Origin: a virus
DNA: 17,017 nucleotides
Virus genome (UHGV): UHGV-0118085
Direction: 5' to 3' (one strand)
The position numbers and the translations under genes were made by a program. This document shows, piece after piece, positions 45 to 17,007 of the stretch. Every line of letters starts with the position of its first letter. The stretch's first letter is position 1. The notes below the pieces were generated by a model. The model searched no databases. It saw only the letters and a program-made list of their open reading frames with translations, and was not told where the DNA came from.

Positions 45-89
45 GATAAAAAAAAACCCCACATCATGTGGGGGAAGACAGGGATGGTG
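45..89. repeat. Attachment-site direct repeat, ogr-proximal copy
   Basis: gataaaaaaaaaccccacatcatgtgggggaagacagggatggtg matches 16963..17007 at 44 of 45 positions; the single difference is a at 56 versus c at 16974. The flanks diverge immediately outside the repeat. Confidence 0.8.
48..73 (-). terminator. Intrinsic-terminator-like hairpin inside the att core
   Basis: A 7-bp stem ccccaca/tgtgggg (57..63 and 67..73) with a 3-nt loop follows a run of nine A (48..56). On the minus strand this reads as a GC-rich hairpin followed by a U tract. The same structure is present in the right copy. Confidence 0.5.
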
Positions 90-191: not shown

Positions 192-440
192 TTATATCGC
201 TAAATTTAGTTGATCGCGTCCATAGTGCGAGGCGGGAAAGACGCCTGCAGGAACAAAGTCAGGCGCTAATTTATCGCGCCGCTCACGCTTGGTGACAATT
301 TTTTCAACGCTATTAAGCGTCGTGAATGACAAGCCGCATTCCATGTTCTGGCACTGATGATACTGACGAATCGTGACTTCACTGAGAGGCTTACTGGTGC
401 GGGTGCGGGCCGTAGCGCCACAATGTGGACATTTGAACAT
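192..440 (-). CDS. ogr: Ogr/Delta-type zinc-finger late-gene transcription activator
   Basis: 82-aa ORF with the Cys4 spacing C-x2-C-x22-C-x4-C (CPHC ... CQNMEC) and the YHQCQN motif typical of P2 Ogr. It sits directly downstream of D, as in P2. Confidence 0.85.
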   Translation of the reverse strand: MFKCPHCGATARTRTSKPLSEVTIRQYHQCQNMECGLSFTTLNSVEKIVTKRERRDKLAPDFVPAGVFPASHYGRDQLNLAI

Positions 441-478: not shown

Positions 479-1612
479 CTATTCAGTTTCTGCAATCCAG
501 TCAGATATTTTTGCTTCAAAGTTAAGCTGTGTAGTAAATCCATTGCTATCAACGTCATGCTGTACCTTGCTGATTATCCAGTCCTGGGCGTCAATATCTG
601 CCTTAAAACCGGTCACGGTCGAATGCATTTCCGGGTACAACTCCGCACGCCCGCGCGCCAAGGTGATCGAAAACTCCGCCGCGCCGCGCTGTAACTGCTG
701 CCACTTTGCCGCCGCTGCGCGCCTAGCGGCTTCTTCGTTCTGGAAGGTTTTACGCATAATAAAAACGTTACCTTCAGCGCCTTCAATGTAGTCACCTTCC
801 CTGCTGCTGCTCTTATCCTTTTTTTTCGTTGTGGCACGGCGACGAACGCTAACCTTTTTCTTTTTCCCGTAGTTTAGATCAAGCCAGTACGCGCGGACGC
901 CGGTATAAGCGTCACGATCAGCAACCCGGAAGCGGTGCCGGTCTCCACTGCTGCGCGTGATGGCAATCGACGGAATAGCCTTCCCTGATGCAGTGAAACC
1001 ACCACCCGGCACGATAAACAGCAGACTTCCATTTTTTACCGTGGCGATGGCCCCTAACATTTCCGCCATTCTGGTCAGAAATGACATATCGCTTTCCTGA
1101 GTCTGATCGGCGTGATCAATTTCCACATCCATCAACAGATCGCTGATTTGCGGCGTCAGGTCATACCGTTTTGCGATAGCAGACACAATCCGCTCCACAG
1201 TCACATCATGCCAGGAGACTTCACGCTTTACGTTAAACTCTTCTCTGAAATCTGCACTTCTGGCAGTCACGGTGATACGGTCGGGCGGCCCGTCGTGCGC
1301 CACTTCATCAACCGTGTAGATGCCCTTATAAACCAGCGCTTCACCCATCCACCCCAGCCAGAAAGACAACTCAGCGCCACGCGGCGGAAGAGCAACGCTT
1401 CCATCAGTGTCATCCAGCTCTAATGTCAGCTGATCGGCGTCAAAACCCCGGTTGTCCGTCAGGCTGATGGATATCACGCGATCTGATAATTCTGTTAACA
1501 CCTTCCCGCCTTGCCGGACGCTGAATGCTGGTATTTTTAACGCCTCCGTCAGGATGTCATCGACACCGCCAGCCGCGCCCGAAATCATACTGCTGATCAC
1601 TGAAACACTCAT
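479..1612 (-). CDS. D: Phage tail protein D (gpD / late control D family)
   Basis: Long ORF resembling the P2 gpD family and immediately upstream of ogr. The track ORF runs to 1726, but the ATG at 1612..1610 is preceded by GGAGG and gives a P2-D-like length of about 377 aa, so I prefer that start. Confidence 0.8.
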   Translation of the reverse strand: MSVSVISSMISGAAGGVDDILTEALKIPAFSVRQGGKVLTELSDRVISISLTDNRGFDADQLTLELDDTDGSVALPPRGAELSFWLGWMGEALVYKGIYTVDEVAHDGPPDRITVTARSADFREEFNVKREVSWHDVTVERIVSAIAKRYDLTPQISDLLMDVEIDHADQTQESDMSFLTRMAEMLGAIATVKNGSLLFIVPGGGFTASGKAIPSIAITRSSGDRHRFRVADRDAYTGVRAYWLDLNYGKKKKVSVRRRATTKKKDKSSSREGDYIEGAEGNVFIMRKTFQNEEAARRAAAAKWQQLQRGAAEFSITLARGRAELYPEMHSTVTGFKADIDAQDWIISKVQHDVDSNGFTTQLNFEAKISDWIAETE

Positions 1613-1672: not shown

Positions 1673-1690
1673 TGTCAGAGAGATAGCACA
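1673..1690 (+). promoter_or_regulatory. TGT-N12-ACA dyad, the Ogr-dependent P2 late-promoter activator-site pattern, upstream of FI
   Basis: TGT at 1673..1675, a 12-nt spacer cagagagatagc, then ACA at 1688..1690. The dyad centre is about 70 to 85 bp upstream of the FI start, the right region for an activator site near -55. Confidence 0.5.
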
Positions 1691-1753: not shown

Positions 1754-2956
1754 ATGGTGACAAACATGTCTGAGACACGTTTTCACGGTGCTCGCACCAA
1801 AGAAGAAACCGACATCACGAGGGTAATTAACGACATTGACTCCAGCGTCATTGGCGTGATTGTCATCGCTGATGACGCAGACGAAGACGCTTTCCCACTT
1901 AACATCCCAACGCTTATCACGCGGCCTCAGTCGATGCTCGGCAAGGCAGGGAAAACAGGGACGTTGTACAAAACACTGAAAGCTATTTCAGACCAGGCAA
2001 GCGCGAAAATCATTGTTGTTCGTGTTGCCACGGCTAAACCGCCGGAGGAAGGGAAAACGGCGGAAACACAGTCGCAGTTGATTATTGGTGGCTCTGATGC
2101 TGACGGTAACTACACCGGCATGTATGCGCTACTGACCGCCGAACAAAAAACGGGATATCGCCCGCGCGTCCTGGCGGTGCCGGAATACGATACCGAAGAA
2201 GTAACATCACAGCTTTGCGTGATCGCCAAACAGCTTCGCGCCTTTGTTTATGCTGGCTGTAACGGCTGCAACACACTGGCAGAGGCCCGGCAATATCGTG
2301 AAACCTTCGCATCACGTGAACTCATGCTGATCTGGCCTAACTACATTGCCTATAACCAGGTGTCCGGGGCAAATGAAGAGTTTCCCGCCCCAGCCTATGC
2401 GGTAGGGCTGCGCGCGTTTATTGACAACCAATACGGCTGGCATCGTTCTCTGTCTAACATCGCCGTCAGTAACGTGCTTGGCATGTCGAAGGACGTTTTC
2501 TGGGCGCTCCAGGCTGAAGACAGCGACGCCCAGACGCTGAACAACGATGAAATCACCACCATCATCAAGCGTAACGGCTTCCGCTTCTGGGGCAACCGCA
2601 CCACTGACACCAATGAATTTACTTTTGAGGTGTACACCCGTACGGCGCAAATCCTGGCGGACACCATCGCAGAGGCACAGTTTGAAACCGTTGACGGGCC
2701 ACTTACCCCAACCAACGTGAAAGACGTGGTGAGTGCAATTAACAAGAAACTCAGCGCACTTGTGACCGCTGGCAAGCTGCTTGGCGCGGAGGCGTGGTTT
2801 GACATTGTGGACAACCCGACCGCAAACCTGATTCAGGGAAAAGTGGCGATCCGTTACAAGTATACGCCAGTACCGCCGATGGAAGATTTAACGCTGATCC
2901 AGACGTTCACCGATGAATATTTTGAAGGCGCGTTTTCGTCTCTGGGGAGTAACTAA
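1754..2956 (+). CDS. FI: Contractile tail sheath protein (P2 FI family)
   Basis: 400-aa ORF with tail-sheath hallmarks (DADEDAFPLN near the N-terminus, GFRFWGNRT, LRAF, C-terminal YTPVPP). Its stop is immediately followed by the start of the tube-like ORF, as for FI-FII in P2. The true start may be the ATG at 1766 (MSETRF...). Confidence 0.85.
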   Translation: MVTNMSETRFHGARTKEETDITRVINDIDSSVIGVIVIADDADEDAFPLNIPTLITRPQSMLGKAGKTGTLYKTLKAISDQASAKIIVVRVATAKPPEEGKTAETQSQLIIGGSDADGNYTGMYALLTAEQKTGYRPRVLAVPEYDTEEVTSQLCVIAKQLRAFVYAGCNGCNTLAEARQYRETFASRELMLIWPNYIAYNQVSGANEEFPAPAYAVGLRAFIDNQYGWHRSLSNIAVSNVLGMSKDVFWALQAEDSDAQTLNNDEITTIIKRNGFRFWGNRTTDTNEFTFEVYTRTAQILADTIAEAQFETVDGPLTPTNVKDVVSAINKKLSALVTAGKLLGAEAWFDIVDNPTANLIQGKVAIRYKYTPVPPMEDLTLIQTFTDEYFEGAFSSLGSN

Positions 2957-4039
2957 ATGGCGATTCCAGCAAAATTGCGGCTGTTCACCTGCTTCGTGAA
3001 CAGCGTAAACAATATCGGCAAAGTGACATCTGTGACGCTGCCAAAACTGACCCGGAAAACGGAAGACTACCAGGGCGGCGGCATGATTGGTTCCGTTGCC
3101 GTCGATCTCGGACTGGATATCTGGCGATTCTGGGAACCGATCAAAGCCTTCTTTGCGGGCTTCTTTGCCGGTGTGATGCAGGCTCTTACACCGTTCCGGG
3201 ATGCCTTTGCCGGGCTGGCCCCCGTCTTTGATGTGATCTCGAATGCCGTTTCTGAGTTATGGCAGTGGTTCAGCAACCTGCTTTCACCAATGACGACCAG
3301 CAAAGAGATGCTTGATAAATGCGCAAGCGCTGGGGAGACATTCGGCAAAGTGTTTGGCCTGGCAATTCAGGGGTTAATGTTGCCTCTGACCGGGCTAGCC
3401 AAAATGGTTGGATGGATACTTGAAAAGCTGGGACTGATTCCATCCGGGATTGAAACAGCAAAAGCAAAAGCTGAGAAGGTACAGAAGGAACTAACACCGG
3501 CAGGATTGACTATGCTGCAGGACAAAGTTGGCGCGCTCACTGGTGATGTAAAAGCAGTAACCGCACCACCTATCGCACCGCCATCACCGGTGATTGCCGC
3601 AGATACAGGAACACAACGACGCTTACAGAAAATTGCCGACAACACCGGCGGGATGCTGGATGAAACCAAAAAACGGATCGGCCCTGGCGATATAGTGTTT
3701 AAAAACCTGCCCCGCGCATTAGCCGTCCACGGCACATGGCAGGAAGCACAATCAACCCAAGGCGCTAACCTGACCCAACTGAGCGGGCGACCGGTTATCG
3801 CAGCGGCATCAGCCCCGATTAAACCAGCGGCTGAAATACAGGCTATTGGCGGGCAATCCAGGAAACAAATCAGCAGATCGGCGCAAAACACCACGCCTGA
3901 TGAAATGCATATTCACATTCATATGCACGGCAATTTCAGCAACGACGCCCGCGACATTGCGCGCATGACCGCCGACGCAGTACAGGCAGAATTTAATAAG
4001 CGCTTCCGCTCACGTAGCAGCTTCAGTGACAATGAATAG
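2957..4039 (+). CDS. Chimeric ORF: tail-tube (FII-like) N-terminus fused in frame to a tape-measure (gpT-like) C-terminal portion; probably a deletion remnant
   Basis: The first ~54 residues (MAIPAKLRLF...VTLPKLTRK...VDLGLD) resemble the tail-tube N-terminus. The remainder is an Ala/Gly-rich, partly hydrophobic sequence typical of a tape-measure C-terminus. 360 aa is far too long for a tube protein (about 170 aa) and far too short for a tape measure (about 800 aa). Confidence 0.6.
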   Translation: MAIPAKLRLFTCFVNSVNNIGKVTSVTLPKLTRKTEDYQGGGMIGSVAVDLGLDIWRFWEPIKAFFAGFFAGVMQALTPFRDAFAGLAPVFDVISNAVSELWQWFSNLLSPMTTSKEMLDKCASAGETFGKVFGLAIQGLMLPLTGLAKMVGWILEKLGLIPSGIETAKAKAEKVQKELTPAGLTMLQDKVGALTGDVKAVTAPPIAPPSPVIAADTGTQRRLQKIADNTGGMLDETKKRIGPGDIVFKNLPRALAVHGTWQEAQSTQGANLTQLSGRPVIAAASAPIKPAAEIQAIGGQSRKQISRSAQNTTPDEMHIHIHMHGNFSNDARDIARMTADAVQAEFNKRFRSRSSFSDNE

Positions 4040-4051: not shown

Positions 4052-5749
4052 ATGATGATGGTTTACGGAATGTTCGTCTTTGAGTTAAAAACCGTTCCCC
4101 ACCAACAGTTGCAGCAATCAAAGACCTGGAGGCATGTGAAGAACGAACGCATAAACCGATCGGCAAAATGGCAATACATTGGCGCGGGTGACGATCAAAT
4201 CACCCTATGCCAACTCACCATGAAGCCGACAAAGACGGGCGGCGATCTGAAGGAAATTGACGCGCTCACGCGCCAGGTGAAGAAACTGGCAGAAGGACAA
4301 CCGGCGCAGCCATTCAAGAAAGCGCGCGCGAGCAAAAAGAAAAACCACTTCACCGAAGCGCAGATCGCCGCGCTGCGGGAAAAAATTCAGGACTCCTTGG
4401 CCTGGCATCAGCAAGGATGGTTTGAACAGCGCCAGCAGCGCAACCGCATGATCCTGAAAAGTCGCCAGATTGGCGCTACCTGGTACTTTGCCCGTGAAGC
4501 GCTTTTACAGGCGCTGCGGGATGACGTTAAGCACGGGTATCAGCGCAACCAGATTTTTCTGTCAGCGTCACGTCGCCAGGCGCACCAGTTCCGGGGCTTC
4601 ATCCAGAAGGTTGCAGAAGAAGTCGACGTAGAGCTAAAAGGCGGTGACAAAATTTTGTTATCTAACGGGGCCGAATTGCATTTTCTCGGCACGTCTGCTG
4701 CTACCGCGCAGAGCTACACCGGCAACCTGTTTTTCGACGAATTTTTCTGGGTAGGTAACTTTGCCAACCTCCGCAAGGTGGCTGGCGCAATGGCAACCCT
4801 GAAAGGACTGACGCGCACTTATTTTTCAACGCCATCGAGCGAAAGCCATGAAGCCTACCCCTTCTGGACGGGTAAGCGCTGGAATGAGAAGCGGGCAAAA
4901 TCCAGCCGAGTAGAGTTCGACACAAGCTGGAAGACGCTCAACAGCGGCCTGTTGTGCCCGGATAAAACCTGGCGGCAGATTGTCACCCTGAAGGACGTGA
5001 TCGACCACGGCTGGGAGTTCACCGACCTGGAAGAAATCCAGGACGAAAATACCCCGGACGAATACACCAACCTGTACATGTGTGAGTTCGTCAAAGAAGG
5101 TGAATCCGTTTTCTCACTTAATCAGCTACTGACGTGCGGCGCGGACGGCTACGACGACTGGCAGGACTGGAAACCCTACGCCCCCCGCCCGCTTGGCGAT
5201 CGTGAAGTCTGGATAGGCTACGACGCCAACGGCGGCAGTGGCAACGGTGACAGCGGCGCTGTTTCCGTGGTTACCCCTCCCCTGGTCAGTGGCGGCAAGT
5301 TCCGCACGATAGAGACGCGCCAGCTACGCGGGATGGAGTTTGAAGAACAGGCCAAAGTGATCGAAGACCTGACCATTAAATACAACGTCCGGCACATCGC
5401 AATTGACGGTACCGGCATTGGTGAAGCGGTCTGGCAACTGGTCAAGAAATTCTTCCCGGCGGCGGTCTGTTTCATCATGTCGCTGTCATCAAAGCGCACT
5501 CTGGTACTCAAAATGCAGCAGGTGATCCGCGCGGGCCGCTGGGAGTATGACCGTAGTGAACAGGCGTTAGTGTCAGCATTCAACGCCGTCAGGAAAATCA
5601 CCACCGCCGGTGGACAAATTACCTATGACACCGATCGCGCGCGCGGCGTCAGTCATGGCGACTTAGCCTGGGCAAATATGCTGGCAATCATCAACGAGCC
5701 ACTTGGACGCGAGAACGGCAGCGGCGGCGGTTCCGTAAGAGAGTTTTAA
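4052..5749 (+). CDS. Chimeric ORF: gpU-like tail-protein N-terminus (about 65 aa) fused in frame to a nearly complete large terminase (gpP-like, ATPase plus nuclease)
   Basis: The N-terminus MMMVYGMFVFELKTVPHQQLQ...WRH...ITL...TGG matches the gpU family pattern. The rest carries terminase large-subunit features (KSRQIGATWYFAREAL, QIFLSAS, GNLFFDEFFWV, YFSTPSS...YPFWTG, C-terminal IAIDGTGIG). An RBS (GGAG) precedes the ATG, and the stop overlaps the Q start (TAATG). Confidence 0.65.
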   Translation: MMMVYGMFVFELKTVPHQQLQQSKTWRHVKNERINRSAKWQYIGAGDDQITLCQLTMKPTKTGGDLKEIDALTRQVKKLAEGQPAQPFKKARASKKKNHFTEAQIAALREKIQDSLAWHQQGWFEQRQQRNRMILKSRQIGATWYFAREALLQALRDDVKHGYQRNQIFLSASRRQAHQFRGFIQKVAEEVDVELKGGDKILLSNGAELHFLGTSAATAQSYTGNLFFDEFFWVGNFANLRKVAGAMATLKGLTRTYFSTPSSESHEAYPFWTGKRWNEKRAKSSRVEFDTSWKTLNSGLLCPDKTWRQIVTLKDVIDHGWEFTDLEEIQDENTPDEYTNLYMCEFVKEGESVFSLNQLLTCGADGYDDWQDWKPYAPRPLGDREVWIGYDANGGSGNGDSGAVSVVTPPLVSGGKFRTIETRQLRGMEFEEQAKVIEDLTIKYNVRHIAIDGTGIGEAVWQLVKKFFPAAVCFIMSLSSKRTLVLKMQQVIRAGRWEYDRSEQALVSAFNAVRKITTAGGQITYDTDRARGVSHGDLAWANMLAIINEPLGRENGSGGGSVREF

Positions 5750-6810
5750 TGAACACAACAACACACGAAAGCGGCCTGACTATGCTTACTGACGGTACAC
5801 AGCAACATGATATTGGTGAAGCACTGAAGCGCGATCCAGCCCTTAGCGCTTTCACCTTTGATGGGCCATACCAGGTCGCTGACGCTTACGACCTGCTCGA
5901 CAATATGTATTGCGCCGATAACGGCAGATATTACGAAACACCGGTGGACTGGTACGGGCTTGCGCGCTCATTCGGCAAGGCGTCCTGGCACCAGTCAGCG
6001 CTGTACTTCAAGCGCAACGCGCTGGCGGGTTGCTTCATCCCACACCCGCTACTGTCTCGCCAGACGTTCTCCGCCCTGGCGCTTGACTGGTTTGTGTTTG
6101 GCAACTTCTACCTGGAAGAACGAAATAACCGACTAGGCGGGCTGCTACCGCTCCGCCATTCCCCGGCGAAATACACCCGGCGTGGCATTGACCTGGATAC
6201 ATACTGGTTTATCAGGCAGTGGAAAGACGAATCAGCTTTTAAAACCGGCTCTGTCTGCCATGTGTTGAACCCTGACATTCATCAGGAGATCTACGGGATG
6301 CCGGAGTACATGGGCGCGCTATTGTCAGCCAGCCTGTCACACTCGGCGGACATGTTCCGCAAGATGTATTACGAAAACGGATCTCATGCCGGATGCATTC
6401 TGTATATCGGCACATCACAGGTGGACGACGCTGGCGTAAAAGTCATACAGCAAACACTGGCGGGAGCCAGGAACAAAGGGGCATTTAAGAACGTAGTGAT
6501 CCACGCGCCAGGCGGCGGTAAAGACGGGGTACAACTGATGCCCTTCAGCCAGATATCAGCAAAGGATGAGTTTTTAAATATTAAATCAGCGACACGCGAT
6601 GACATTCTGGCGGCTCACCGCGTACCGCCGCAACTGATGGGGGCCATGCCGGACGGCAACGGCTCATTCGGTGATGTGGAGAAGGCCGCGCGCGTGTTTG
6701 CCATCAACGAACTAATGCCAGCAATGGAAGCGCTGAAGCACGTCAACGACTGGCTGGGGGAAGAAGTGATCCGCTTTAAACCTTACGCCCTGCTGGAAAC
6801 CATGAAATAA
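5749..6810 (+). CDS. Q: Phage portal protein (P2 gpQ family)
   Basis: 353-aa ORF of P2 Q size, translationally coupled to the terminase ORF, and followed by a GC-rich cos-like spacer as in P2. Confidence 0.85.
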   Translation: MNTTTHESGLTMLTDGTQQHDIGEALKRDPALSAFTFDGPYQVADAYDLLDNMYCADNGRYYETPVDWYGLARSFGKASWHQSALYFKRNALAGCFIPHPLLSRQTFSALALDWFVFGNFYLEERNNRLGGLLPLRHSPAKYTRRGIDLDTYWFIRQWKDESAFKTGSVCHVLNPDIHQEIYGMPEYMGALLSASLSHSADMFRKMYYENGSHAGCILYIGTSQVDDAGVKVIQQTLAGARNKGAFKNVVIHAPGGGKDGVQLMPFSQISAKDEFLNIKSATRDDILAAHRVPPQLMGAMPDGNGSFGDVEKAARVFAINELMPAMEALKHVNDWLGEEVIRFKPYALLETMK

Positions 6811-6984
6811 CCAACCCGCCGCCATCCCGGCGGCGCTCTCCGCATCACATCAATACACGGCACGCCAGCGCCATTCTAAGCGCCCCATAATCTAAACACG
6901 CCATTACCCGCACACAACACACAGAACGCAGCAGCGCGCCAGAATTGCGCCAATTTCCCTATATTTGAGGTATACCCCTTCCCA

Positions 6985-7030
6985 CCCCGCCGCGCGGGCT
7001 TTCCCCCCGTCACCTGCGCGCGGCAAACAC
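6985..7030. other. Putative cos (cohesive-end / packaging) region
   Basis: A GC-rich palindromic stretch containing gctttcccc, which resembles the reverse complement of the P2 cos end as I recall it. It lies about 190 bp past the portal stop, where cos is expected in this orientation. The match is partial. Confidence 0.3.
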
Positions 7031-7152
7031 GCGTGTTTTCGTGCATTGGCAGAACCACATCCAGCAACCATAGACCCTGCCATTATCGTCTTAAAACTCG
7101 ACTGATTTAGTTGTGCATTTTTGTGCACTTTCTTGCATGTCATTACACGTAT

Positions 7153-9924
7153 TTAATCATCTAGCAACGGATCTTGTGCCTTACTGGAATTAACTTGCTC
7201 CAAATGCTTAATACAATCTTCACTTGAAATAAAATAGACCTTAGGTTTTTTCCTTAGCTCATATGTCAAAAATACTGTCACTTCCATTTTTACATACGTT
7301 TTCAGATTAGTTTCATTTATATCTAATCCTCTTGAAGTCAACAAACTATCAGATGGAGAAGTGAAAGATGCTTTTAATATATCGTCTCCCTCAAGAGAAA
7401 AACAACAAACATCATCAAGATGAATATAATAAAAACCATCCTTATTAAATTTTACATCATTTTGTACTCTATATCTCATTCCTCTGTAGAATCTGACGTT
7501 ATGATCAAAATCATTCTCTATTGCGCTTATAGTTATAAACTTCAAACCTTCAGGGAGTTGGTTAAGATTCTTAATAATAACAACATCCATATCATGAAGA
7601 TCACTAATCAAATGAGAAGTGATGAGTTTGAAAACATTTGCCGCATATAAAGATGGAGATTGGGAATATATTTCTCCATTAATGGGCTTAATAATCTGTC
7701 GCTTCGTAATTAGATATTCAAAAACAAACTTGTCACTAATATTTTCACAACTACACTCTAAAGTAGCAAACTCACGAAATGTTTTTATGAAATCATTTTT
7801 TAATCCATCTTCATATAGCTTCATGAGTTCTTCATCATAAGGAGTATTGATCACATCATTGACTTGAATATCAAGAATCTTAGAGTTTATTTCTTCAAAT
7901 CCAGAAAGTAGATTATGCTTACGCTCATCAAAACTATTAAGCTCATCATTATGAGCTTCTAATTCGAGTAAATCCATAACTTCTCTAAAAAAATCTGATT
8001 GATATATAGACATGACATCATCTATAAAATGAGATGAAAGATTATTTACCTTTACAAGGTTCTCTAAATCATCAATATATATTAGACTTAAACCATTATT
8101 GTACGAACGACCTTTGAATAAAATCAATGCTAAAGCAAAAGCCATATAATGTTGTGATCTTATAGAAATAGCACCTGAGCCAGTTGCATCCCTTATTTCA
8201 AACTCATCTATATCATCTAAAAAAACAGATTTTAACGAAAAAAGAATATCATAAACTTCTGATATGAAGTAAATCTCCGTTAAGTAATGAGGATTCAACC
8301 ATTGGCTCAGCAAGTTTGCCAGATCTAATATTTCCTCATTCTTATTTTTTAGTTCACATAATCGAATGCCATCATTTTTTCCTAGTAGGTGCTCCAACCG
8401 CATTCCAATACAAGATATCACTATTTTATTCGCATCAATCAGCAAGGATTGTCTAGTATTCAATTCAGATGATGAAATGCCAATATAAATGTTATTATTC
8501 CCAGTAAGAAATGTAGTGTTTATTTTAAAAGCATCATAATGTCTATTGACAAGGTTTTTAATACTCGACTTAAGATAAATCTCAAGAAACTTATCACTTT
8601 CAGAATACATAACTCTTTCTTCTGTGAAACTCCTAGACTCAATCAAAAAACCATAATATGAAGATGGATCATAAATTATTCTCGGAAGAGAAAGCATAGA
8701 ACTAAAGACGATTAGAGCTTTTTCAATATCGGTATATAGAAGAAGCCATAGCAACTTATTATAAAACGCGAATAGTATTGTTTGTGGTGTATTTTTTGAG
8801 GATGGGGATTCATATATGAATCGTTCCAAACTTAAAAACACTCCTGCACTTTGAGATTTTGAAATTATTAAATATATTACTTCCACACAAAAATCAAGTT
8901 GACTACTTAAACTCCCCTGCAAGGTGTTTAATGTATTCCTTACAACCATCAACTCTATTTCATCATAAAAATAGAAATTTTCGCTTTCATTAAGATAATT
9001 GAATGATTTACTAATGAGCGTTTTAATTTTATTAAGAGACTCATGATTTTGATTCAAATTAATGCCTTCATCAGAAAAAATAATGGCATCTCTATCAATC
9101 ATAGGCTTGTGAAATGTAGGTGAGATATATAATACAACTTTTGAAGTGCCGAAAATTTTTGTTAGTTCAGCATTCAATTTATTTAGATTATTCTTATTAA
9201 GGCCAACTATTACTTTCTTATCCGTAGAATATGTATTTTTAATTTTTACTCCATTTAGAGGCATGAACTCCATTTCATATTTAATAACTGAATTCTGTTG
9301 GTTTTTTATAAAATTACGAAATTCAGCAAGTAGATGCTTGCTATTATTATTACTATCTAAAACAAATGAACTAACTTCCGTTACTTTATTCAATAAAATT
9401 GCATCAATCAACTCTTTTTTCTCTGTTATATAATATAAACTCCTGAACATGGATATGTATCGGAATATAAAAAAAACAGAGCATGATACTGACAAGGCAT
9501 ATTGAATAACCCCCCCACCGATTACCAAGAAAAAGATTCCCACAAATAATCCGCAAATAGCATTAAGGCTGAATGAATAAAATTTATATTCTCTCAATAC
9601 CAATTGCCTTGTTACATTAACAAAATACTTATTTGATGCCTCTGTAACCTGTTGAACAAACATTCCCATAAATGCAATTGATAATGCAGCGATTGTTCCG
9701 TGGATTGATAATATAGTTCCCCAAGAGCTAGGAATCCAATTTAACTCTGCTTTATTAACGTATAACGGAGAAATAAAGAGCCAGCGATAGTCAGAATCTC
9801 CTCCTGCCCCTACAAAAAATAAAACCGAACCTAAAAGCAAAATTAAACCCATCTTAATAAAAGACTCAATTGCTTTTTTACCTGTGAATTCAGCCACCTG
9901 CTTTGATATTTTACCACTATCCAT
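7153..9924 (-). CDS. Large AT-rich cargo protein of unknown function with about four N-terminal transmembrane helices; candidate anti-phage defence or exclusion protein
   Basis: Uninterrupted 923-codon ORF. Sampled 60-nt lines inside it give 19/60 and 14/60 G+C, against 37/60 in a sampled line of gene A. Hydrophobic segments fall at residues about 25-41, 66-90 and 118-165 (nt about 9430..9852). No Walker A, HUH, DPPY or other motif recognised in the soluble part. It occupies the P2 tin/old position between A and cos/Q. Confidence 0.8.
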   Translation of the reverse strand: MDSGKISKQVAEFTGKKAIESFIKMGLILLLGSVLFFVGAGGDSDYRWLFISPLYVNKAELNWIPSSWGTILSIHGTIAALSIAFMGMFVQQVTEASNKYFVNVTRQLVLREYKFYSFSLNAICGLFVGIFFLVIGGGVIQYALSVSCSVFFIFRYISMFRSLYYITEKKELIDAILLNKVTEVSSFVLDSNNNSKHLLAEFRNFIKNQQNSVIKYEMEFMPLNGVKIKNTYSTDKKVIVGLNKNNLNKLNAELTKIFGTSKVVLYISPTFHKPMIDRDAIIFSDEGINLNQNHESLNKIKTLISKSFNYLNESENFYFYDEIELMVVRNTLNTLQGSLSSQLDFCVEVIYLIISKSQSAGVFLSLERFIYESPSSKNTPQTILFAFYNKLLWLLLYTDIEKALIVFSSMLSLPRIIYDPSSYYGFLIESRSFTEERVMYSESDKFLEIYLKSSIKNLVNRHYDAFKINTTFLTGNNNIYIGISSSELNTRQSLLIDANKIVISCIGMRLEHLLGKNDGIRLCELKNKNEEILDLANLLSQWLNPHYLTEIYFISEVYDILFSLKSVFLDDIDEFEIRDATGSGAISIRSQHYMAFALALILFKGRSYNNGLSLIYIDDLENLVKVNNLSSHFIDDVMSIYQSDFFREVMDLLELEAHNDELNSFDERKHNLLSGFEEINSKILDIQVNDVINTPYDEELMKLYEDGLKNDFIKTFREFATLECSCENISDKFVFEYLITKRQIIKPINGEIYSQSPSLYAANVFKLITSHLISDLHDMDVVIIKNLNQLPEGLKFITISAIENDFDHNVRFYRGMRYRVQNDVKFNKDGFYYIHLDDVCCFSLEGDDILKASFTSPSDSLLTSRGLDINETNLKTYVKMEVTVFLTYELRKKPKVYFISSEDCIKHLEQVNSSKAQDPLLDD

Positions 9925-10104: not shown

Positions 10105-12594
10105 TCATCTTTCAGGGGCAATCCTTTTCAACATTCTAGTGTAATATCCAATTGGATCATGCCTAATGTTACCACAGTCAATATTATGTCTTATTTGCAT
10201 ACGTTGCCACAACGCCCTGATTTTAGAGTCCATGCTGGAGTCTGATCGACGTCGCACTTCTCCATTGTTGTTGGCATAAACAACACTTTCATCAATACGC
10301 AAATGTTCGCCGCGTAACAACAACTTTATTTGGCCTGTACTCAGCTTCATGCCGATAGATCTGGCATAGTCATCCATTACAGCTATGCGTGCTTCAGGTA
10401 TTGGCACAGTGACATGGTCAGCAGGCATACATTTTTCCTGTTGGCGCAACTCATGAGCTACCTTCAGATAGATCTCTGCTCTAGCCTGCTCAATTTCACC
10501 ACAATCAAATGCCGTAATAGCATTAGCAAGCGCTTCAAATTCATCAGCAGGTGATTTTTGCCGTTTCGATTTGTAGTTTCTTAAACCTTCATTAAGACGC
10601 ATTTTCTGTTCGCGGGTCATTTGACCAATTTCATACTGTTCGGGTTCGTCCGGTTGTGAATTTTCACATACTGATTTTGTGTGTTTTTTGTACTCAGTAC
10701 AGTTATTGACACGAGTCCAAGAGGGCGCGGGCGCGCCCTTAAGGTCAAAACCTCGACCAGCGTCGTCGTCTGCTTTTGGCTTCATTTTGACAATACGATA
10801 AGAATGGAGACGGGTTTCAACCGGAGGAATAGTCGATGCTGGCATGACTACGCCTTTAATGACTCTCTGAAACTCGCCGTAACTGCTCGGTTCATCCCGG
10901 TACTGATACCATGCGCGCAACACAAGCCTATTCCGTGCCACGAACGGGCCACCCTGCAAGGTAATGTAGTCCTGCCAGTTCCCCGCATGTGCGGCGCGAT
11001 GTAACTCACCGAAAACCGGACTGATACGATCTGCCATTTCCTGATTCTTCAGGCGGCGCAACTCGCGCCAGACAGACACCGGCGCACCACCCAAAAACTG
11101 AAACTGACGAATGCCCCAGCATGAAGCCCAGGCGGTAGCGTGTTTTGCTGTTTCCTTCAGTGGACGTCCGCTTTCGTCGTCGCTTTCACCATCCAGCGCG
11201 TAGCCATCAATATTTTTAGATATGTACTTAACAACATAGCCAGTAGCACTCCCCAAAGCCGGATCTATTGGCTTAAGCTCAAAGCGCGGTTGCTTGCCAG
11301 TCTTGCCGGTTAGCTCGTCTGCATCCTCACGTGTGGCGTAGTCTTCCATCACTTCCAACAACTCGCCGGTATGTTCCGGGGCAGTGAACAGAAGGCCATG
11401 CCAATGCGGAGTAGCATCATGGTGAGATTCAGCAACGCGAAGGCCAAAAACAGGAATCTCACGGCGCGCAAGCTCCGCGCGGATCAGCTGCCAGACGTGA
11501 TTAAGGTAGTTCTGTGTTTTGCGTGGGCTTGCTCCGTTCCATTTATGATTACGATGCCCGAATACTGTAAAAGCATGATATTTAGACGGTGCGGTCAACG
11601 TGAAGAAACTACCGGCAAAACCGCTTTCTGTTGCCACTTTCTCAAAGCCACCAATGCGCGTCATCAACTCAACGCGGCGCTTTTCAGGGTTAGAAATACT
11701 TTTATCAATCTGCTCTATCAGCGAAATGCGCTCGCCAGTTACCTGATCTTCAAGTTCAAGACGGCTCATAATTTCGCGACTACGCTTACGGCGGGAATCC
11801 CACTGTGTAACGTGGTGTTTGCTGCAATACGGTGAAACATCGCGGCGCACATCACCATAAGCAATGTGCAAATGCTCACGCCAGCGGCGGGCGTACTTGC
11901 GCAGAAGGCGTGACCAAAAGCGATCGTGCGTGGTTTTTTGTATTGCCGCCGCCGCTTCATCAAGCGCCATCCGGCGCTTCTTCGCCCAAGGTGCCACCAA
12001 CCTGAAATACGCAATTAGTCTAGAGCCTTCACGCACCATGCGTTTGCCGTACTCAGCATCACTAAACATGCTCGCGCCTTCACTCACTTCAGCCAAAACG
12101 GCATTGGCATAAATGGCAATGTCCTGTGCCAACAAATCAATATCTTCATCGGTACTATCAGCCAGATTATTGAAGCGGTGCGCTAGCTCACGCAGATTTT
12201 CAAACGTGTGAAATAGTGGGTTTAGTTCAGAGAAAATGATCCAATCATTGTCTTCTGGTACCGCGTATTGATTCGTGACGTTACGGACGTGTGGAAGCTC
12301 GCGCTTAACGATATCGCGTAGCTTCAGTTTTGCGATATGACGTCCTTTATCCTCGTGAACGGTATTTATGTAAAAAGCAATGCGACGGCGAATGAAAGAA
12401 GGTAACGGCTTAAGGGTATCTTCTACCCATGCGAAAAACTCCTGCTCTTGACCCAATTCATATAGGTCAACAGCGGGAGTCTTATCGACGGAAATGGCCT
12501 GTTTGGGCTCATTCCAGGCGTAAGCATACCGGGCTGGCTCAACCGAGCCTCCCGGCATGGAGGTCATGCTATGGGTGCGGCGAACTGAAGTCAT
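10105..12594 (-). CDS. A: Rolling-circle replication initiator endonuclease (P2 gpA family)
   Basis: HUH motif PHWHGLLF (nt 11398..11406) and the twin-tyrosine motif YVVKYISKN (nt 11224..11238) with the two Tyr three residues apart, as in P2 A and phiX174 A. The track start at 12597 is a TTG; the ATG at 12594 is preceded by AAGG, so I prefer it. Confidence 0.9.
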   Translation of the reverse strand: MTSVRRTHSMTSMPGGSVEPARYAYAWNEPKQAISVDKTPAVDLYELGQEQEFFAWVEDTLKPLPSFIRRRIAFYINTVHEDKGRHIAKLKLRDIVKRELPHVRNVTNQYAVPEDNDWIIFSELNPLFHTFENLRELAHRFNNLADSTDEDIDLLAQDIAIYANAVLAEVSEGASMFSDAEYGKRMVREGSRLIAYFRLVAPWAKKRRMALDEAAAAIQKTTHDRFWSRLLRKYARRWREHLHIAYGDVRRDVSPYCSKHHVTQWDSRRKRSREIMSRLELEDQVTGERISLIEQIDKSISNPEKRRVELMTRIGGFEKVATESGFAGSFFTLTAPSKYHAFTVFGHRNHKWNGASPRKTQNYLNHVWQLIRAELARREIPVFGLRVAESHHDATPHWHGLLFTAPEHTGELLEVMEDYATREDADELTGKTGKQPRFELKPIDPALGSATGYVVKYISKNIDGYALDGESDDESGRPLKETAKHATAWASCWGIRQFQFLGGAPVSVWRELRRLKNQEMADRISPVFGELHRAAHAGNWQDYITLQGGPFVARNRLVLRAWYQYRDEPSSYGEFQRVIKGVVMPASTIPPVETRLHSYRIVKMKPKADDDAGRGFDLKGAPAPSWTRVNNCTEYKKHTKSVCENSQPDEPEQYEIGQMTREQKMRLNEGLRNYKSKRQKSPADEFEALANAITAFDCGEIEQARAEIYLKVAHELRQQEKCMPADHVTVPIPEARIAVMDDYARSIGMKLSTGQIKLLLRGEHLRIDESVVYANNNGEVRRRSDSSMDSKIRALWQRMQIRHNIDCGNIRHDPIGYYTRMLKRIAPER

Positions 12595-12603
12595 CAATCC
12601 GCC

Positions 12604-12777
12604 TTAGATGGAAACAGTGTCGCCGGGCTGTATTGCTCTGGCGTCACGTTCTGAATAGGTGATCAGATCTGTATTGCTGTAACCCCCCTCACCCAGAACC
12701 TCAACACGAGTTATCCAGTAATTACGGCGCGGGAGCACATCCAGCACCTTTGTCACAACGACCTCAACGGGATTCAT
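12604..12777 (-). CDS. Hypothetical small protein (57 aa), translationally coupled to the methyltransferase
   Basis: Hand-translated as MNPVEVVVTKVLDVLPRRNYWITRVEVLGEGGYSNTDLITYSERDARAIQPGDTVSI. Its ATG (12777..12775) overlaps the methyltransferase stop codon (12779..12777) by one nucleotide (TGATG), with AGGAGG upstream. It is below the ORF-track length cutoff. Confidence 0.45.
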   Translation of the reverse strand: MNPVEVVVTKVLDVLPRRNYWITRVEVLGEGGYSNTDLITYSERDARAIQPGDTVSI

Positions 12778-13760
12778 CAGAACACCTCCTGATCATCAAA
12801 AGCACCAGAGGCAACCATTTCTGAATAGGTCGCATCAGCCATCACAGCACCGCAATCAGGACAACCGCCGCCAGTACGCCCACAACAACCACAAACGCGT
12901 AGAAAGCCGATCACCTCGCCAGCCAAGTTGCGAGATTTGGCCCCTACAGATCGGCGGATTTCGAATGAATTAAGGGTGAACGGGTAGTAAATTTTGCGGG
13001 TTTCCGGGGTATCGCTACCGGAAAAAACAGACAGGCATCCTTCGTTGTTATGAGCGGTAATCAATGACTCAACCAGGTCACGGTGATCATCGACAGTGAA
13101 GGGTTTACCGTACGCGGTAAAATCAGCCGTTTTACTCGCTGGCAGGTAAGGCGGATCACAGTAAATTACTGTGCGCTCAAATATGCGACTAGCAACAGGG
13201 ATGGTGTAACGGAAATCAGCGCAAAGAAACTGAGCACCTTTCTCATATGCTCGTTTTGCAAAGTGCTGGATCTCTGCAACAGGGAAAATTGGCTTGCGGC
13301 GACGACCAAATGGAACGTTAAATTCATTCTTCCCATTCACTCGGTATAAACCGTTATAGCAATGACGGTTTAGATAAAGGAATAATGCTGCAAACTTTAC
13401 AAGTTCACTCTGATAATAAACCTTTCCATCAGAAGTTTTTTTATTATGCTGGGGGAAATCACGATTAAAATCATTAAATTCATTGCGGCATTTATAATAT
13501 GCCTCTTCATTATTACCGCCATCAAATAGAGTAGCAGCGACATCTAGCAACGATTTAGTATTGTTCTTCAATATTGAATAGAAGTTCATAAGCGCTGCGT
13601 TGCTATCACACAGAATATAGGTTTTATAGTCAGTGTTCAGAAAGACGCTACCACTACCTACAAAAGGCTCAACGAGACATTCACCCTTTGGCAAAGCCTC
13701 CAGTACATGAGGCATCGCGCGAGACTTGCCGCCCGCCCAGATCAGAGGGGAGTTAACCAT
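12777..13760 (-). CDS. Dam-type N6-adenine DNA methyltransferase with a Cys-rich C-terminal tail
   Basis: N-terminal SPLIWAGGK...EPFVGSGSV (AdoMet-binding) and catalytic DPPY (nt 13146..13157). I start it at the ATG at 13760 (MVNSP...), preceded by AAGGAG, rather than the track start at 13832. The C-terminus carries CGCCGRTGGGCPDCG (nt about 12852..12893). Confidence 0.85.
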   Translation of the reverse strand: MVNSPLIWAGGKSRAMPHVLEALPKGECLVEPFVGSGSVFLNTDYKTYILCDSNAALMNFYSILKNNTKSLLDVAATLFDGGNNEEAYYKCRNEFNDFNRDFPQHNKKTSDGKVYYQSELVKFAALFLYLNRHCYNGLYRVNGKNEFNVPFGRRRKPIFPVAEIQHFAKRAYEKGAQFLCADFRYTIPVASRIFERTVIYCDPPYLPASKTADFTAYGKPFTVDDHRDLVESLITAHNNEGCLSVFSGSDTPETRKIYYPFTLNSFEIRRSVGAKSRNLAGEVIGFLRVCGCCGRTGGGCPDCGAVMADATYSEMVASGAFDDQEVF

Positions 13761-13920
13761 TTTTTTGCTCCTTGATTTCTGCGGCCTTTTCTCTGTTGTA
13801 GATCCAGTCTTCCAGGCTGCGATAAATTTCATTGGTGGACAGCTTTTCTTTTTTCAGTAAGGTTAATTTGATACGTAACAACCCAAGCAGGTGCGCGCGT
13901 TCATTTATTTGAATTGTCAT
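13753..13920 (-). CDS. Hypothetical small protein (55 aa) overlapping the methyltransferase start
   Basis: Hand-translated as MTIQINERAHLLGLLRIKLTLLKKEKLSTNEIYRSLEDWIYNREKAAEIKEQKNG. GGAGG lies upstream of its ATG, and its 3' end overlaps the methyltransferase ATG by 8 nt. Confidence 0.45.
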   Translation of the reverse strand: MTIQINERAHLLGLLRIKLTLLKKEKLSTNEIYRSLEDWIYNREKAAEIKEQKNG

Positions 13921-14000
13921 AATCAACCTCCTGAAAAAAGATAAAGCGAAGCCCCGGCAGAAATGCCGTAAATAAACAGATTCAGATTGCAGTTATTTAA

Positions 14001-14282
14001 TTAGCGAGCACCGCTATTCCAGTATTTCTCTAATTCAACACTGAAGGCGTCACAAATAGAGCCGCCCGGAAGAATAGAAAATTGAATGCCCGTCTCTTTA
14101 CATCGCACTTCAAAACCATTTCGAGCAATATCAGATAGCGCCATGCCCTGAACAACATTACGCGATTTGCTGTGCTGATGACTTGGACTATAGCCGCTGC
14201 GAGACGGTGTGCGGGTTCCATCCTGCCGGGAAGCATTGACGCTCTGTCGGGCGTTCAGAATAGCTGCTGTTGAGGTGGTCAT
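14001..14282 (-). CDS. Hypothetical early-operon protein (93 aa)
   Basis: ORF in the cox-to-A early operon; its ATG overlaps the stop of the upstream ORF (ATGA). No motif recognised. Confidence 0.55.
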   Translation of the reverse strand: MTTSTAAILNARQSVNASRQDGTRTPSRSGYSPSHQHSKSRNVVQGMALSDIARNGFEVRCKETGIQFSILPGGSICDAFSVELEKYWNSGAR

Positions 14283-14530
14283 AACCCCCCCGGCTGAGAG
14301 TGATCAATTGCAAGTGGTAAAGGCACTACACCACTCATTACAGCGCTAATGGTTGGAAGCAGATCATCAATAGTTTCATTATCGCGCAAACAGAAAGCGG
14401 CACCGTAGAGGTGCTGAAGGCCGCTAGCCAATACGCCGTAATGTGACTCATGGCCTTGAGGGTTGTTTTCCATGTTGAAATGGTAATCCTGGAGCATTTC
14501 ATTTACCTGCTCCGCGTAGCAACGTTTCAT
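14279..14530 (-). CDS. Hypothetical early-operon protein (83 aa)
   Basis: ORF with an ATG start at 14530 overlapping the upstream stop. No motif recognised. Confidence 0.55.
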   Translation of the reverse strand: MKRCYAEQVNEMLQDYHFNMENNPQGHESHYGVLASGLQHLYGAAFCLRDNETIDDLLPTISAVMSGVVPLPLAIDHSQPGGL

Positions 14531-14787
14531 TGTTCACCCCTGTCGAATTTGACTGTCTCGGAAGGTATGGAGACCTGGCTATTCCGGCATTCCGGCGCAC
14601 GCTCAAGAACGATTGACACGGCATAGCAAAGGTCTTCATCGGTCAGGTCAAGCATGTCCTTTACGCGCAGGATTGCTAAAGTCGCCTTTGCTCGCTTAGT
14701 TACGCGTGAGGTTGCAGCCTCTTTTTTCGCGGTTGCCAACATTTTTTTAGCGGCTGGTGATAACTGATGAGAAAGTAAAAGACTCAC
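14527..14787 (-). CDS. Hypothetical early-operon protein (86 aa), GTG start
   Basis: The start codon at 14787..14785 is GTG, preceded by AGGAGG 4 nt upstream, and it overlaps the upstream stop (GTGA). Confidence 0.5.
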   Translation of the reverse strand: MSLLLSHQLSPAAKKMLATAKKEAATSRVTKRAKATLAILRVKDMLDLTDEDLCYAVSIVLERAPECRNSQVSIPSETVKFDRGEQ

Positions 14788-14975
14788 GCGGCCTCCTGTC
14801 TCAGTTGATCAATGGTTGAAAGGGCTTCAGCTAACGCGAAATCCAGCCCCAGATAATTACCATCTTTGGTGATTTGGTAACGCTGGCGTGAATACGGCTT
14901 TTTGCGTGGCAGCTTCACAATAGTGAAGCCGCGATAGATTGCTGTTTTGCTGTTGATCTGGATAAGCATCATCAA
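14784..14975 (-). CDS. Hypothetical early-operon protein (63 aa)
   Basis: ORF starting 18 bp after the cox stop on the same strand; first gene of the overlapping chain. Confidence 0.5.
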   Translation of the reverse strand: MMMLIQINSKTAIYRGFTIVKLPRKKPYSRQRYQITKDGNYLGLDFALAEALSTIDQLRQEAA

Positions 14976-14992
14976 TCCCTTAGCTTCAGTTA

Positions 14993-15265
14993 TTAAAGGC
15001 CCATCCAGAGCAACCAGGCATCACGCTGTTCAACCGGGCGGTTATAGAACGCCTCACGCACCCCGCGATTGAACTCAGGAACAAAGACCAGCTTTTCTCC
15101 CGCGCGCGCTTTTGGCTTCGACGGATCACGAAACTCAATAACCGGCAGCTTATTTTTTTCAATCATGGTTTGTACGGCTGTGCGTGGTTTACCTAGCAAT
15201 TCCGCGAACTTATCAGGATGTACCGCATCAAGCGGGTACTGAATAACGTAATCAGCAGCTTCCAT
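14993..15265 (-). CDS. cox: Cox-like excisionase / early repressor of the lysogenic promoter
   Basis: 90-aa ORF divergent from the C repressor gene, resembling P2 Cox (FAELLGKPRTAVQTMIEKNKLPVIEF...). It is the first gene of the minus-strand early operon leading to A. Confidence 0.75.
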   Translation of the reverse strand: MEAADYVIQYPLDAVHPDKFAELLGKPRTAVQTMIEKNKLPVIEFRDPSKPKARAGEKLVFVPEFNRGVREAFYNRPVEQRDAWLLWMGL

Positions 15266-15426
15266 AAACTATCTCCATTCTCATTTGGTTACATGCTAAC
15301 CTTGTAAGATCCAGCGGCTTTAAAACGGCTCAGGATGGTTCCTGAGCGGCTGGACTCACGCCCAAAAAGGTTCTGAGTCAATGACCTTTTCGGGTGAGTA
15401 TAGTCATTAAGTCAGGACCAAATCAA
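15266..15426. promoter_or_regulatory. Divergent early/lysogenic promoter-operator region between cox and C
   Basis: 161-bp intergenic region between divergent cox and C. It contains a perfect palindrome gctcagga-tggt-tcctgagc (15328..15347), near-direct repeats ggttcctgag / ggttctgag (15338..15347 and 15369..15377), and a -10-like TATAGT (15399..15404) upstream of C. Confidence 0.55.
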
Positions 15427-15720
15427 ATGAATCTTGCTCAAAAATTGCGAGCGATCAGGAAGGCAGAAGGGCTAACACAGGCTAAATTCTGTGAAATCAG
15501 CGGGATAGCGTTAGGAACGCTGAAGAATTACGAAGGAGGGCATCAAGAGCCAGGTATACAAGTGATCATGCAGGTAACTAACACGGCGCATTTTGAAAAA
15601 TACACCCTGTGGTTAATGACCGATAAGACAGCACCAGAAGCCGGGCAGATTTCCCCGGCCGTCGCACACTCTGGGCAAGACGAAACAACCTCGTCACCAT
15701 CAGGCCGCAAAACTGGCTAA
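15427..15720 (+). CDS. C: Immunity repressor C (P2 C family, helix-turn-helix)
   Basis: The C-terminal half (FEKYTLWLMTDKTAPEAGQISPAVAHSGQDETTSSPSGRKTG) closely resembles P2 C. I start it at the ATG at 15427 (MNLAQKL...), preceded by AGGA, giving 97 aa; the track ORF begins at a GTG at 15394. Confidence 0.85.
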   Translation: MNLAQKLRAIRKAEGLTQAKFCEISGIALGTLKNYEGGHQEPGIQVIMQVTNTAHFEKYTLWLMTDKTAPEAGQISPAVAHSGQDETTSSPSGRKTG

Positions 15721-15862
15721 CGATTAACCGGGACTATATTTATTACATAAGTTGTTTACTTGTAAGGAAATATAATTTCAGGCGTTACAAAGAAGTAAGT
15801 AAGAAACCTCGGACTGTTACTACTAATCCGTGCAAGTTTGAAAGCTCTATTCGGAGGGTCTT

Positions 15863-16843
15863 ATGACTATCAAAAGACTCGATGATGGGCGTTATGAAGT
15901 GGATATCAGACCGCGCGGGCGTGAAGGACGTCGCATCCGCCGAAAATTTGAGAGAAAGGCTGAAGCTATTGCCTTTGAGCGCTACACATTAGCGAACGCT
16001 AACCAGAAGGAATGGGCGGGCCAGAGAACAGATCGCAGATCTCTATCTGAATTACTGGATGCCTGGTGGAAGTATCACGGTCAAAACCATGAACACGGTG
16101 AGAAGGAATTTAACCACCTCACGAAGACGATCGGCGGCATCGGTGACATACCCGTTAGCCGCGTGAGCAAACGGCTCCTGATGGACTACCGTTCTATGCG
16201 ACTTCGTGACGGTATCAAGGCATCAACAATTAACCGTGATATGTACCGTTTTTCAGGCATGTTCACCAAGTTGATTCAGTTGGAAGAGTTTTCCGGCACA
16301 CATCCAGTGCATGGACTACCGCCACTGGCAGAAGAAAACCCAGAAATGACATTTCTGGCAAAGGAAGAGATCAGCAGCTTACTAAATGCCTTAACCGGCG
16401 ATGCAAGATTGATTGCCCTTCTGGGCGTCAGTACCGGTGCGCGATGGTCTGAGTTGGCAACGTTAAAGCCTTCTCAGATCGTCAATTGCCGCGTGACTTT
16501 CCTGAAGACCAAAAACGGGAAAAAGCGCACTGTTCCAATTTCTGCTGAACTAGAAAAACTGATCAAGAGGGAGGCAAGCGCGAAACTGTTTAAAGTGGAC
16601 TATGAAAAATTTTGTCTGATCCTGAAGGCGGTAAAACCAGATATACCCCCGAACCAGGCAACACATATTCTGCGTCATACCTTCGCAAGTCATTTTATGA
16701 TGAATGGGGGTAACATTATCGCGCTACAGCAGATATTAGGACATGCCAGCATCCAGCAAACGATGGTTTACGCGCATCTGTCGCCAGACTATCTGCAAAA
16801 TGCTGTCTCACTAAATCCCCTTGCCGGTGGCGTATCGCTTTAA
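15863..16843 (+). CDS. int: Tyrosine integrase (P2 Int family)
   Basis: 326-aa ORF with the catalytic signature HILRHTFASH ... MVYAHL (H-x-x-R and the nucleophilic Tyr). It lies downstream of C on the same strand and next to the right att repeat, as in P2. Confidence 0.9.
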   Translation: MTIKRLDDGRYEVDIRPRGREGRRIRRKFERKAEAIAFERYTLANANQKEWAGQRTDRRSLSELLDAWWKYHGQNHEHGEKEFNHLTKTIGGIGDIPVSRVSKRLLMDYRSMRLRDGIKASTINRDMYRFSGMFTKLIQLEEFSGTHPVHGLPPLAEENPEMTFLAKEEISSLLNALTGDARLIALLGVSTGARWSELATLKPSQIVNCRVTFLKTKNGKKRTVPISAELEKLIKREASAKLFKVDYEKFCLILKAVKPDIPPNQATHILRHTFASHFMMNGGNIIALQQILGHASIQQTMVYAHLSPDYLQNAVSLNPLAGGVSL

Positions 16844-16962: not shown

Positions 16963-17007
16963 GATAAAAAAAACCCCCACATCATGTGGGGGAAGACAGG
17001 GATGGTG
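16963..17007. repeat. Attachment-site direct repeat, int-proximal copy
   Basis: Matches 45..89 at 44 of 45 positions and includes the same A-run plus ccccaca/tgtgggg hairpin. Confidence 0.8.

Follow-up and report, generated by a model that had tools for sequence, protein, structure and literature searches.

We describe a 360-codon open reading frame (ORF) in the UHGV virus genome UHGV-0118085, a stretch of 17,017 nt (hereafter, the window) that megablast identifies as a shortened relative of Escherichia coli P2-like prophages. This ORF joins in frame the N-terminus of a tail-tube protein to the C-terminus of a tape-measure protein (TMP). It is very probably the scar of a deletion in a crippled P2-like prophage, left by ordinary prophage decay and encoding a chimera that is likely a useless by-product.

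To assign the two parts of the ORF, we compared it with proteins of E. coli prophages and with curated profiles. BLASTP aligned residues 1-54 with the 171-amino acid (aa) tube protein of E. coli JX21CE33 (96% identity, E = 4e-34), and residues 4-54 matched positions 1-51 of the 165-position Pfam Phage_tube profile (E = 3e-15). The TIGR01611 'tail_tube' profile (positions 3-53) yielded 41.7 bits, below its cut-off of 102.75 bits, and the chimera contains no full-length tube domain (~165-170 residues) scoring above the curated cut-off. It does occupy the place of a tube gene, with a start of its own directly 3' of the sheath gene, as in intact relatives. Residues 55-360 are colinear with residues 685-992 of the 992-aa TMP of JX21CE33 (78% identity, E = 6e-172), and PHROG TMP families span chimera residues 43-359. 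Beyond the tube part, the Pfam scan of the chimera was empty, and the PF10145 (PhageMin_Tail) core is absent; what is left of the TMP is a colinear C-terminus of 306 of 1,002 residues, lacking both that core and the full length of ~990-1,002 aa. Hydropathy of the chimera on the Kyte-Doolittle scale reached at most 1.42, under the usual transmembrane-helix level. The chaperone genes (E and E+E' types) that lie 5' of the TMP gene in relatives are missing from the window.

An intact prophage at locus L009 proved to be a near-parent. The chimera is 100% identical at the amino acid level to its tube residues 1-54 plus its TMP residues 697-1002, which belong there to separate genes, and the DNA of the TMP segment shows 0-1 mismatch in 1,091 nt with respect to L009 and two further loci, L005 and L008. 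The halves of the chimera map to two separate places per genome in sequenced phages. The first-pass annotation of this DNA had read the first ~54 residues as tube-like and the remainder as a tape-measure C-terminus. Both assignments hold, the former by the Pfam profile and the identities to JX21CE33 and L009, and the latter by the match to the last 306 TMP residues of these prophages. It had also named colinearity of the whole ORF with a single protein family as the outcome that would overturn this view, and the halves align instead to two separate proteins. One apparent instance of such colinearity, partial E. coli TMP matches reported at '39% identity, 99% coverage', was discarded because residues 5-54 entered these alignments as a low-identity, gap-rich BLAST extension.

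Three-way DNA alignments with ES1, AMSCJX04, L005, L008, and L009 resolved the deletion junction (J1) to the base. The tube parent matches the window up to position 3119 and the TMP parent from position 3118, placing the crossover within codon 55, after its first base (AGC to ATC). The junction, predicted near 3119..3125, is in consequence set at 3118-3119, and the microhomology that was to be sought at the breakpoint amounts to the 2 nt (TA) common to both parental sites. The deletion spans 2,916 bp (972 codons) with respect to the near-parent, and 2,912-2,915 bp with respect to more distant relatives. It removed tube residues 55-170, both chaperone genes (E/E'), and TMP residues 1-696, as anticipated for a single in-frame event that took the rest of the tube gene, the chaperones, and most of T. 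The fusion is in frame because the tube and TMP genes share the same reading frame in the parent and 2,916 bp corresponds to 972 codons. A microhomology of at least 2 nt is found at 16% of random site pairs, which makes that of J1 unremarkable. However unremarkable the TA itself, the 45 nt located 5' of the parental breakpoints share 22/45 in-register matches, including TGATTGG, against a null mean of 11.4 (SD 3.0, P ~0.001). This similarity involves window positions 3074..3119 and L009 positions 5931..5976, which read GMIGSVAVDLGLD and GLIGAAFVATGLL, respectively, at the protein level. It may have guided the deletion, and is consistent with short-homology-assisted illegitimate recombination, the mechanism that we infer.

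Not mentioned in the first-pass annotation were the small size of the J1 microhomology (just 2 nt), the occurrence of the scar in many public assemblies, and a second, larger fusion downstream. The latter joins gpU to the large terminase, again in frame, as revealed by Pfam, PHROG, and comparison with the near-parent. Its junction (J2) is a TAT microhomology at 4206-4208, where ~11,990 bp are missing relative to ES1; the gpU remainder and the fibre, baseplate, lysis, head-completion, small terminase, capsid, and scaffold genes were lost with them. The J2 fusion also strips the terminase of its N-terminal helix-turn-helix region. The exact protein, named 'terminase family protein' by NCBI, occurs on 22 contigs. 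After both deletions, sheath, first chimera, second chimera, and portal form a tight array on the + strand.

We then traced the scar across public assemblies. The exact 360-aa protein was found in 31 blocks of the assembly collection, on at least 21 contigs, with carriers among two NCBI E. coli isolates, ENA gut metagenomes, and Logan assemblies. Carrier genomes include GCA_018022265.1 and GCA_047770995.1, and further carriers come from ERZ27266050, ERZ27239093, and ERZ19661888. Two accessions correspond exactly to the chimera (EHK3585486.1 and HGU6748935.1), and the name that NCBI gives them, "phage major tail tube protein", misleads because tube residues 55-170 are deleted. The word-indexed homology search missed both the identical protein and the cluster representative, which were recovered by exact look-ups. 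Every copy retrieved matches the window at 100% identity over 5-14 kb, the scar is present in at least 12 loci from independent sources, and single contigs extend without a break from fieF on one host side, across both junctions, to cpxP on the other. No exact match to a 24-mer across J1 occurred in the GTDB species representatives, IMG/VR, and JGI metagenome contigs searched, and megablast of the whole window against 5,426 complete E. coli genomes did not detect the element.

Intact relatives disclose the ancestral arrangement. In the JX21CE33 and ES1 prophages, two tail-assembly chaperone genes (Phage_TAC_7 and GpE) lie between tube and TMP, and the order in intact relatives is tube, TAC_7, GpE, TMP, and gpU, followed by baseplate, lysis, and head genes. 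BLAST of the window against the ES1 prophage returned colinear blocks at 1-3119, 3118-4208, 4206-7137, 10434-14308, and 14837-17017, and ES1 has an additional ~2.9 kb and ~12 kb between the first three of these. When the sheath protein was looked up by exact match, it turned up in deleted elements and also, unchanged, in L005, L008, and L009, all of them intact, with a 170-aa tube protein, both chaperones, a 1,002-aa TMP, and a 162-aa gpU. The DNA flanking the junction is 99.6-100% identical to that of the intact prophages L005, L008, L009, and L026. An intact prophage 99.6-99.9% identical to the late genes of the window occupies the same site in L005/L057 (GCA_022343635.1), where the host pfkA-fieF flank is just 85% identical to E. 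coli. Since an intact prophage sits in a host with such a flank, the comparison indicates that the parental phage crosses genus boundaries; the intact parent-type phage was seen with at least five different E. coli flanks and in one non-E. coli host. Citrobacter, Salmonella, and Kluyvera also have annotated TMPs related to this one.

Decay of these prophages is recurrent. In L021, the tube gene breaks off after 111 codons, where it is joined to head genes of the opposite strand, and the scaffold gene is truncated (6652..8120). An independent deletion in L024 and L025 links gpU residues 1-63 to the final 66 residues of the terminase, once more in frame (L024 9612..10001).

These data can be accommodated in a simple sequence of events. 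A circulating temperate P2-like phage would have integrated at cpxP-fieF of E. coli, whereupon illegitimate recombination, probably replication slippage or end joining at the 2-nt TA with the imperfect upstream similarity as a possible aid, would have joined tube codon 55 to TMP codon 697. A second deletion, of ~12 kb, linked gpU codon 52 to terminase codon 62 at TAT, with loss of the baseplate, fibre, lysis, and head genes. The outcome is a 16.9-kb defective prophage with the array from sheath to portal behind its only remaining Ogr-type late promoter. Because the remainder of the tube, both chaperones, and TMP residues 1-696 were lost, no tail could be built. The chimera, comprising one third of the tube fold and devoid of the TMP core, is on these grounds most likely a non-functional by-product, either silent or useless.

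The chimera could nonetheless be made when Ogr is active, the ribosome binding site (RBS) and start of the tube gene having been kept. Its ATG overlaps the stop codon of the sheath gene (TAAATG), GGGGAG lies a few bases upstream, and the native tube start is intact. The D/sheath intergenic region contains a single, palindromic TGT-N12-ACA element, the consensus of Ogr-dependent P2 late promoters (PMC3931495), at ~55 nt from plausible start sites of D (- strand) and sheath (+ strand), which may serve as a bidirectional Ogr-dependent late promoter. The ogr gene is present in the element; D and ogr are inverted in this phage family relative to P2. We found no convincing terminator on the + strand between the promoter element and the chimera or inside the sheath-portal array. 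It is plausible, and consistent with the sequence, that the chimera is expressible only from this late promoter 5' of the sheath gene, in line with the first-pass annotation, which had the chimera still produced from the FI promoter.

The window contains the whole element, whose features are compiled in Table 1. In public contigs it is bordered by fieF and cpxP of the host, and cpxP-fieF is a known P2-type integration site, held by Wphi1 in E. coli W (PMC3032704). The element has the attributes of a cryptic prophage, that is, att repeats and an integrase at an attachment site, and a P2-type gene order minus essential morphogenesis genes. Lacking capsid, scaffold, small terminase, baseplate, fibre, and lysis genes, it is predicted to be unable to form plaques or particles by itself. 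The cos-like 19-mer, recognized by comparison with the P2 cos sequence (PMC3931495), is identical in intact relatives and lies at the expected position; the match is weak alone, with another 4-mismatch site at 1940 and no site at three or fewer mismatches to the P2 19-mer in the window. Its position beside the portal gene and its identity in intact relatives suggest that the defective element has probably kept a packaging site.

Table 1. Features of the window and coordinates therein
Feature	Position	Strand	Remarks
attL core, 45 nt	45..89		direct repeat of 16963-17007, one mismatch
ogr/delta-type late transcription activator	192..440	-	Pfam Ogr_Delta in gene tables of identical loci
gpD-type tail gene	479..1612	-	377 aa in public assemblies; mechanical ORF extends to 1726
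TGT-N12-ACA element, P2 late-promoter (Ogr-dependent) type	1673..1690		D/sheath intergenic region; putative function
Tail sheath gene (FI-type), intact	1754..2956	+	400 aa; three Pfam sheath domains; directly 5' of the chimera
Chimeric ORF	2957..4039	+	360 aa (~40 kDa predicted from length), ATG start; tube residues 1-54 in frame to TMP residues 697-1002
Tail-tube (FII-type) segment	2957..3119	+	54 N-terminal codons and first base of codon 55; PF04985 positions 1-51/165
Deletion junction J1	3118..3119		2-nt TA microhomology common to both parental sites; three-way alignments
Tape-measure segment	3120..4039	+	306 C-terminal codons and stop; identity to L005, L008, L009; PHROG
Second in-frame chimera	4052..5749	+	565 aa; gpU residues 1-52 joined to large terminase residues 62-574
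Portal gene, intact	5749..6810	+	start overlaps stop of second chimera
cos-like 19-mer GGTGACGGGGGGAAAGCCC	6996..7014	-	near portal gene; 15/19 matches to P2 cohesive end
Cargo gene	7153..9924	-	923 aa, ~30% G+C; variable region between portal and gpA; outside the fusion
Early region, retained intact	10105..16843		gpA replication endonuclease, Dam methylase, small ORFs, cox, C repressor, integrase
Tyrosine integrase	15863-16843		adjoins att
attR core, 45 nt	16963..17007		excised unit would be 16,918 bp

The slot between portal and gpA holds a gene of markedly lower G+C content than the phage (about 53%), encoding a protein with hydrophobic N-terminal segments. Searches with this protein of 923 aa in Pfam, PADLOC, and NCBIfam returned nothing, and its homologues comprise only about 15 clusters from Citrobacter, Lelliottia, Enterobacter, and Kosakonia, every one labelled 'hypothetical'. 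We regard the gene as an uncharacterised candidate for a cargo or defence function. A 924-aa relative, 25% identical, fills the same slot in L024, and other relatives carry other cargo. At the borders of the element, the 45-nt att core has a strong hairpin (CCCCACATCATGTGGGG), just downstream of cpxP, and the att region (window 45..89 and 16963..17007; L027 11104..11176) scores 44.5 bits against the Rfam family Hrs1, short of its gathering threshold of 56.4. The phage may integrate into a terminator or a small RNA-like element between cpxP and fieF. Neither Rfam at the gathering threshold nor ARAGORN identified RNA genes in the window.

We further compared the copies of the element with their host flanks. 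Those at L027/L053, L032, L052, L031, and L033 differ by 0-2 single-nucleotide polymorphisms (SNPs) in 12-17 kb. Across 8.4 kb of the right host flank, the two NCBI carriers differ from each other by 1 SNP and from the ERZ27266050 carrier by 54-55 SNPs (about 0.65%), and two further probable carriers, with an identical early region and, in one of them, cargo-adjacent sequence as well, differ from all others by 15-45 SNPs. Vertical descent would give roughly a hundred differences within the element, as opposed to the 0-2 SNPs seen. This disparity between element and flank, the latter with up to 55 SNPs, implies that the element or its surrounding region moved recently, by horizontal spread. Such movement may have occurred by homologous recombination of a fragment carrying the element, or by helper-mediated transfer of a cos-positive, int-positive mini-genome. 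On contig k141_171365 of ERZ27266050 (L013/L038 1..2600), the element stands in tandem with a different P2-like prophage that shares the att core and whose int/C/cox module is 97.9% identical to that of Enterobacter phage phiT5282H, making this neighbour a possible helper. The int-to-ogr adjacency on this contig was also considered as a circular or concatemeric form of the element, and rejected: the adjoining integrase differs (65% identity) and belongs to the phiT5282H-like tandem prophage.

The interpretation of the ORF as a mere decay scar has to be weighed against several of these observations. An element that reaches different backgrounds is not simply decaying in one clone; some process keeps it mobile or favours it. 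J1, J2, and the L024 junction, the three co-directional junctions between genes that were seen, are all in frame (P ~0.04 at a 1/3 chance for each), a weak hint of selection for the products or for read-through, the count being a small sample of three events that was not pre-specified; an ogr-anchored look-up of further contexts added no new deletion events to it. Finally, the copies being identical, purifying selection on the chimera can be neither demonstrated nor excluded.

Among the alternatives, we consider it unlikely that the element is a helper-dependent 'mini-P2', which would excise, replicate, and be packaged by a co-resident or superinfecting P2-like phage. It has kept both att sites, int, cox, C, gpA, ogr, and the cos-like site, and could be packaged as a 33.8-kb dimer, near the ~31.8-kb parental genome. 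Helper packaging would account for the near-identical copies in unrelated E. coli chromosomes, and the in-frame scars would then keep a single late operon translatable, with aberrant products that might interfere with the helper. Counting against helper transfer, the junction is missing from IMG/VR, and genes for hijacking a helper (capsid-size redirection, derepression, or interference) did not appear when the proteins tested were searched with Pfam, PHROG, and PADLOC; the other genes belong to the ordinary early set of P2-type phages.

It is more doubtful still that the chimera, perhaps together with the gpU::terminase product, is a selected dominant-negative fragment that poisons tail or head assembly of related P2-like phages. 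It would be made from the Ogr-activated promoter upon infection by, or induction of, a related phage, and would protect the host population or favour the resident element. The in-frame junctions, the compact late array behind a retained Ogr-type promoter with ogr intact, the persistence and spread of the element across backgrounds, and the phiT5282H-like prophage adjoining it in one metagenome all fit this proposal. However, the in-frame excess is weak for the reasons given above, the copies offer no sequence variation for testing selection, PADLOC returned no match, and 54 tube residues are unlikely to fold or to enter a hexamer. Moreover, several kb of the element show just 0-4 mismatches to the parent, a sign of very young age, and its mere persistence needs no selection.

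A bona fide modular tail protein of a distinct lineage, or a recombinant of two phages, is highly improbable: TMPs are modular and variable in length, and NCBI annotates the ORF as a tail tube protein, but among 240 homology matches and the cluster membership only identical copies share the tube-N/TMP-C architecture, a single colinear parent matches both halves, flanks included, at 99.6-100% identity, and every other tail-building gene is missing from the element. With no divergent protein of the same architecture, the comparison indicates that the chimera is not a natural modular protein family. An assembly or sequencing artefact, that is, a chimeric contig of an intact prophage, is excluded, since the merely 2-3 nt of microhomology and the absence of the junction 24-mer and of the element from the collections noted above are outweighed by identical protein and DNA in independent assemblies produced by different methods and by host-to-host contigs that cross both junctions.

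As a deletion scar, the ORF bears modestly on annotation. What is deposited as "phage major tail tube protein" is a tube::tape-measure chimera, and the "terminase family protein" a gpU::terminase chimera. Both mark a prophage unable to make particles, which completeness tools that count structural matches would overrate. The element also offers a clean, datable case of early prophage decay, with breakpoints readable to the base because an intact parent, 99.6-100% identical, still circulates. Were helper transfer to explain its spread, it would represent a phage turning into a satellite, with a bearing on the origins of phage satellites.

Comparison with known systems places the chimera and the element in context. 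The closest isolated phage to the TMP part is Enterobacter phage phiT5282H, a P2-like myovirus whose TMP C-terminus is 45.6% identical over residues 42-348; its tail genes are distant, and it is not the parent of the element. With the P2 tube protein gpFII (PF04985, TIGR01611), the chimera shares the N-terminus, start codon, RBS, and post-sheath position, and differs in having only 51 of the 165 profile positions, tube residues 55-170 being deleted. Likewise, the chimera from residue 55 to residue 360 runs colinear with the C-terminal 306 residues of a 1,002-aa TMP of the P2 gpT type, whereas residues 1-696, including PF10145, and the upstream chaperone genes that a TMP needs are gone.

At the level of the whole element, there is a likeness to satellite P4 in a size of at most about half the helper genome, an integrase, an Ogr/Delta-type activator, a replication gene of its own, a cos-like site, and the lack of capsid, tail, and lysis genes. 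Unlike P4, the element derives directly from a phage by deletion and carries gpA instead of the P4 alpha primase; sid, psu, and epsilon of P4 are not among its annotated gene products, no search having been aimed at them. Another parallel is provided by cryptic P2-type remnants such as ogr-D' at the cyaR site of E. coli K-12 (PMC3032704), which likewise occupy a P2-type site, have internal deletions, and keep ogr and D. In contrast to these, the present element is very young, with 99.6-100% identity to a circulating intact phage, retains int, C, cox, gpA, att sites, and the cos-like site, and bears two deletions that both left in-frame chimeras.

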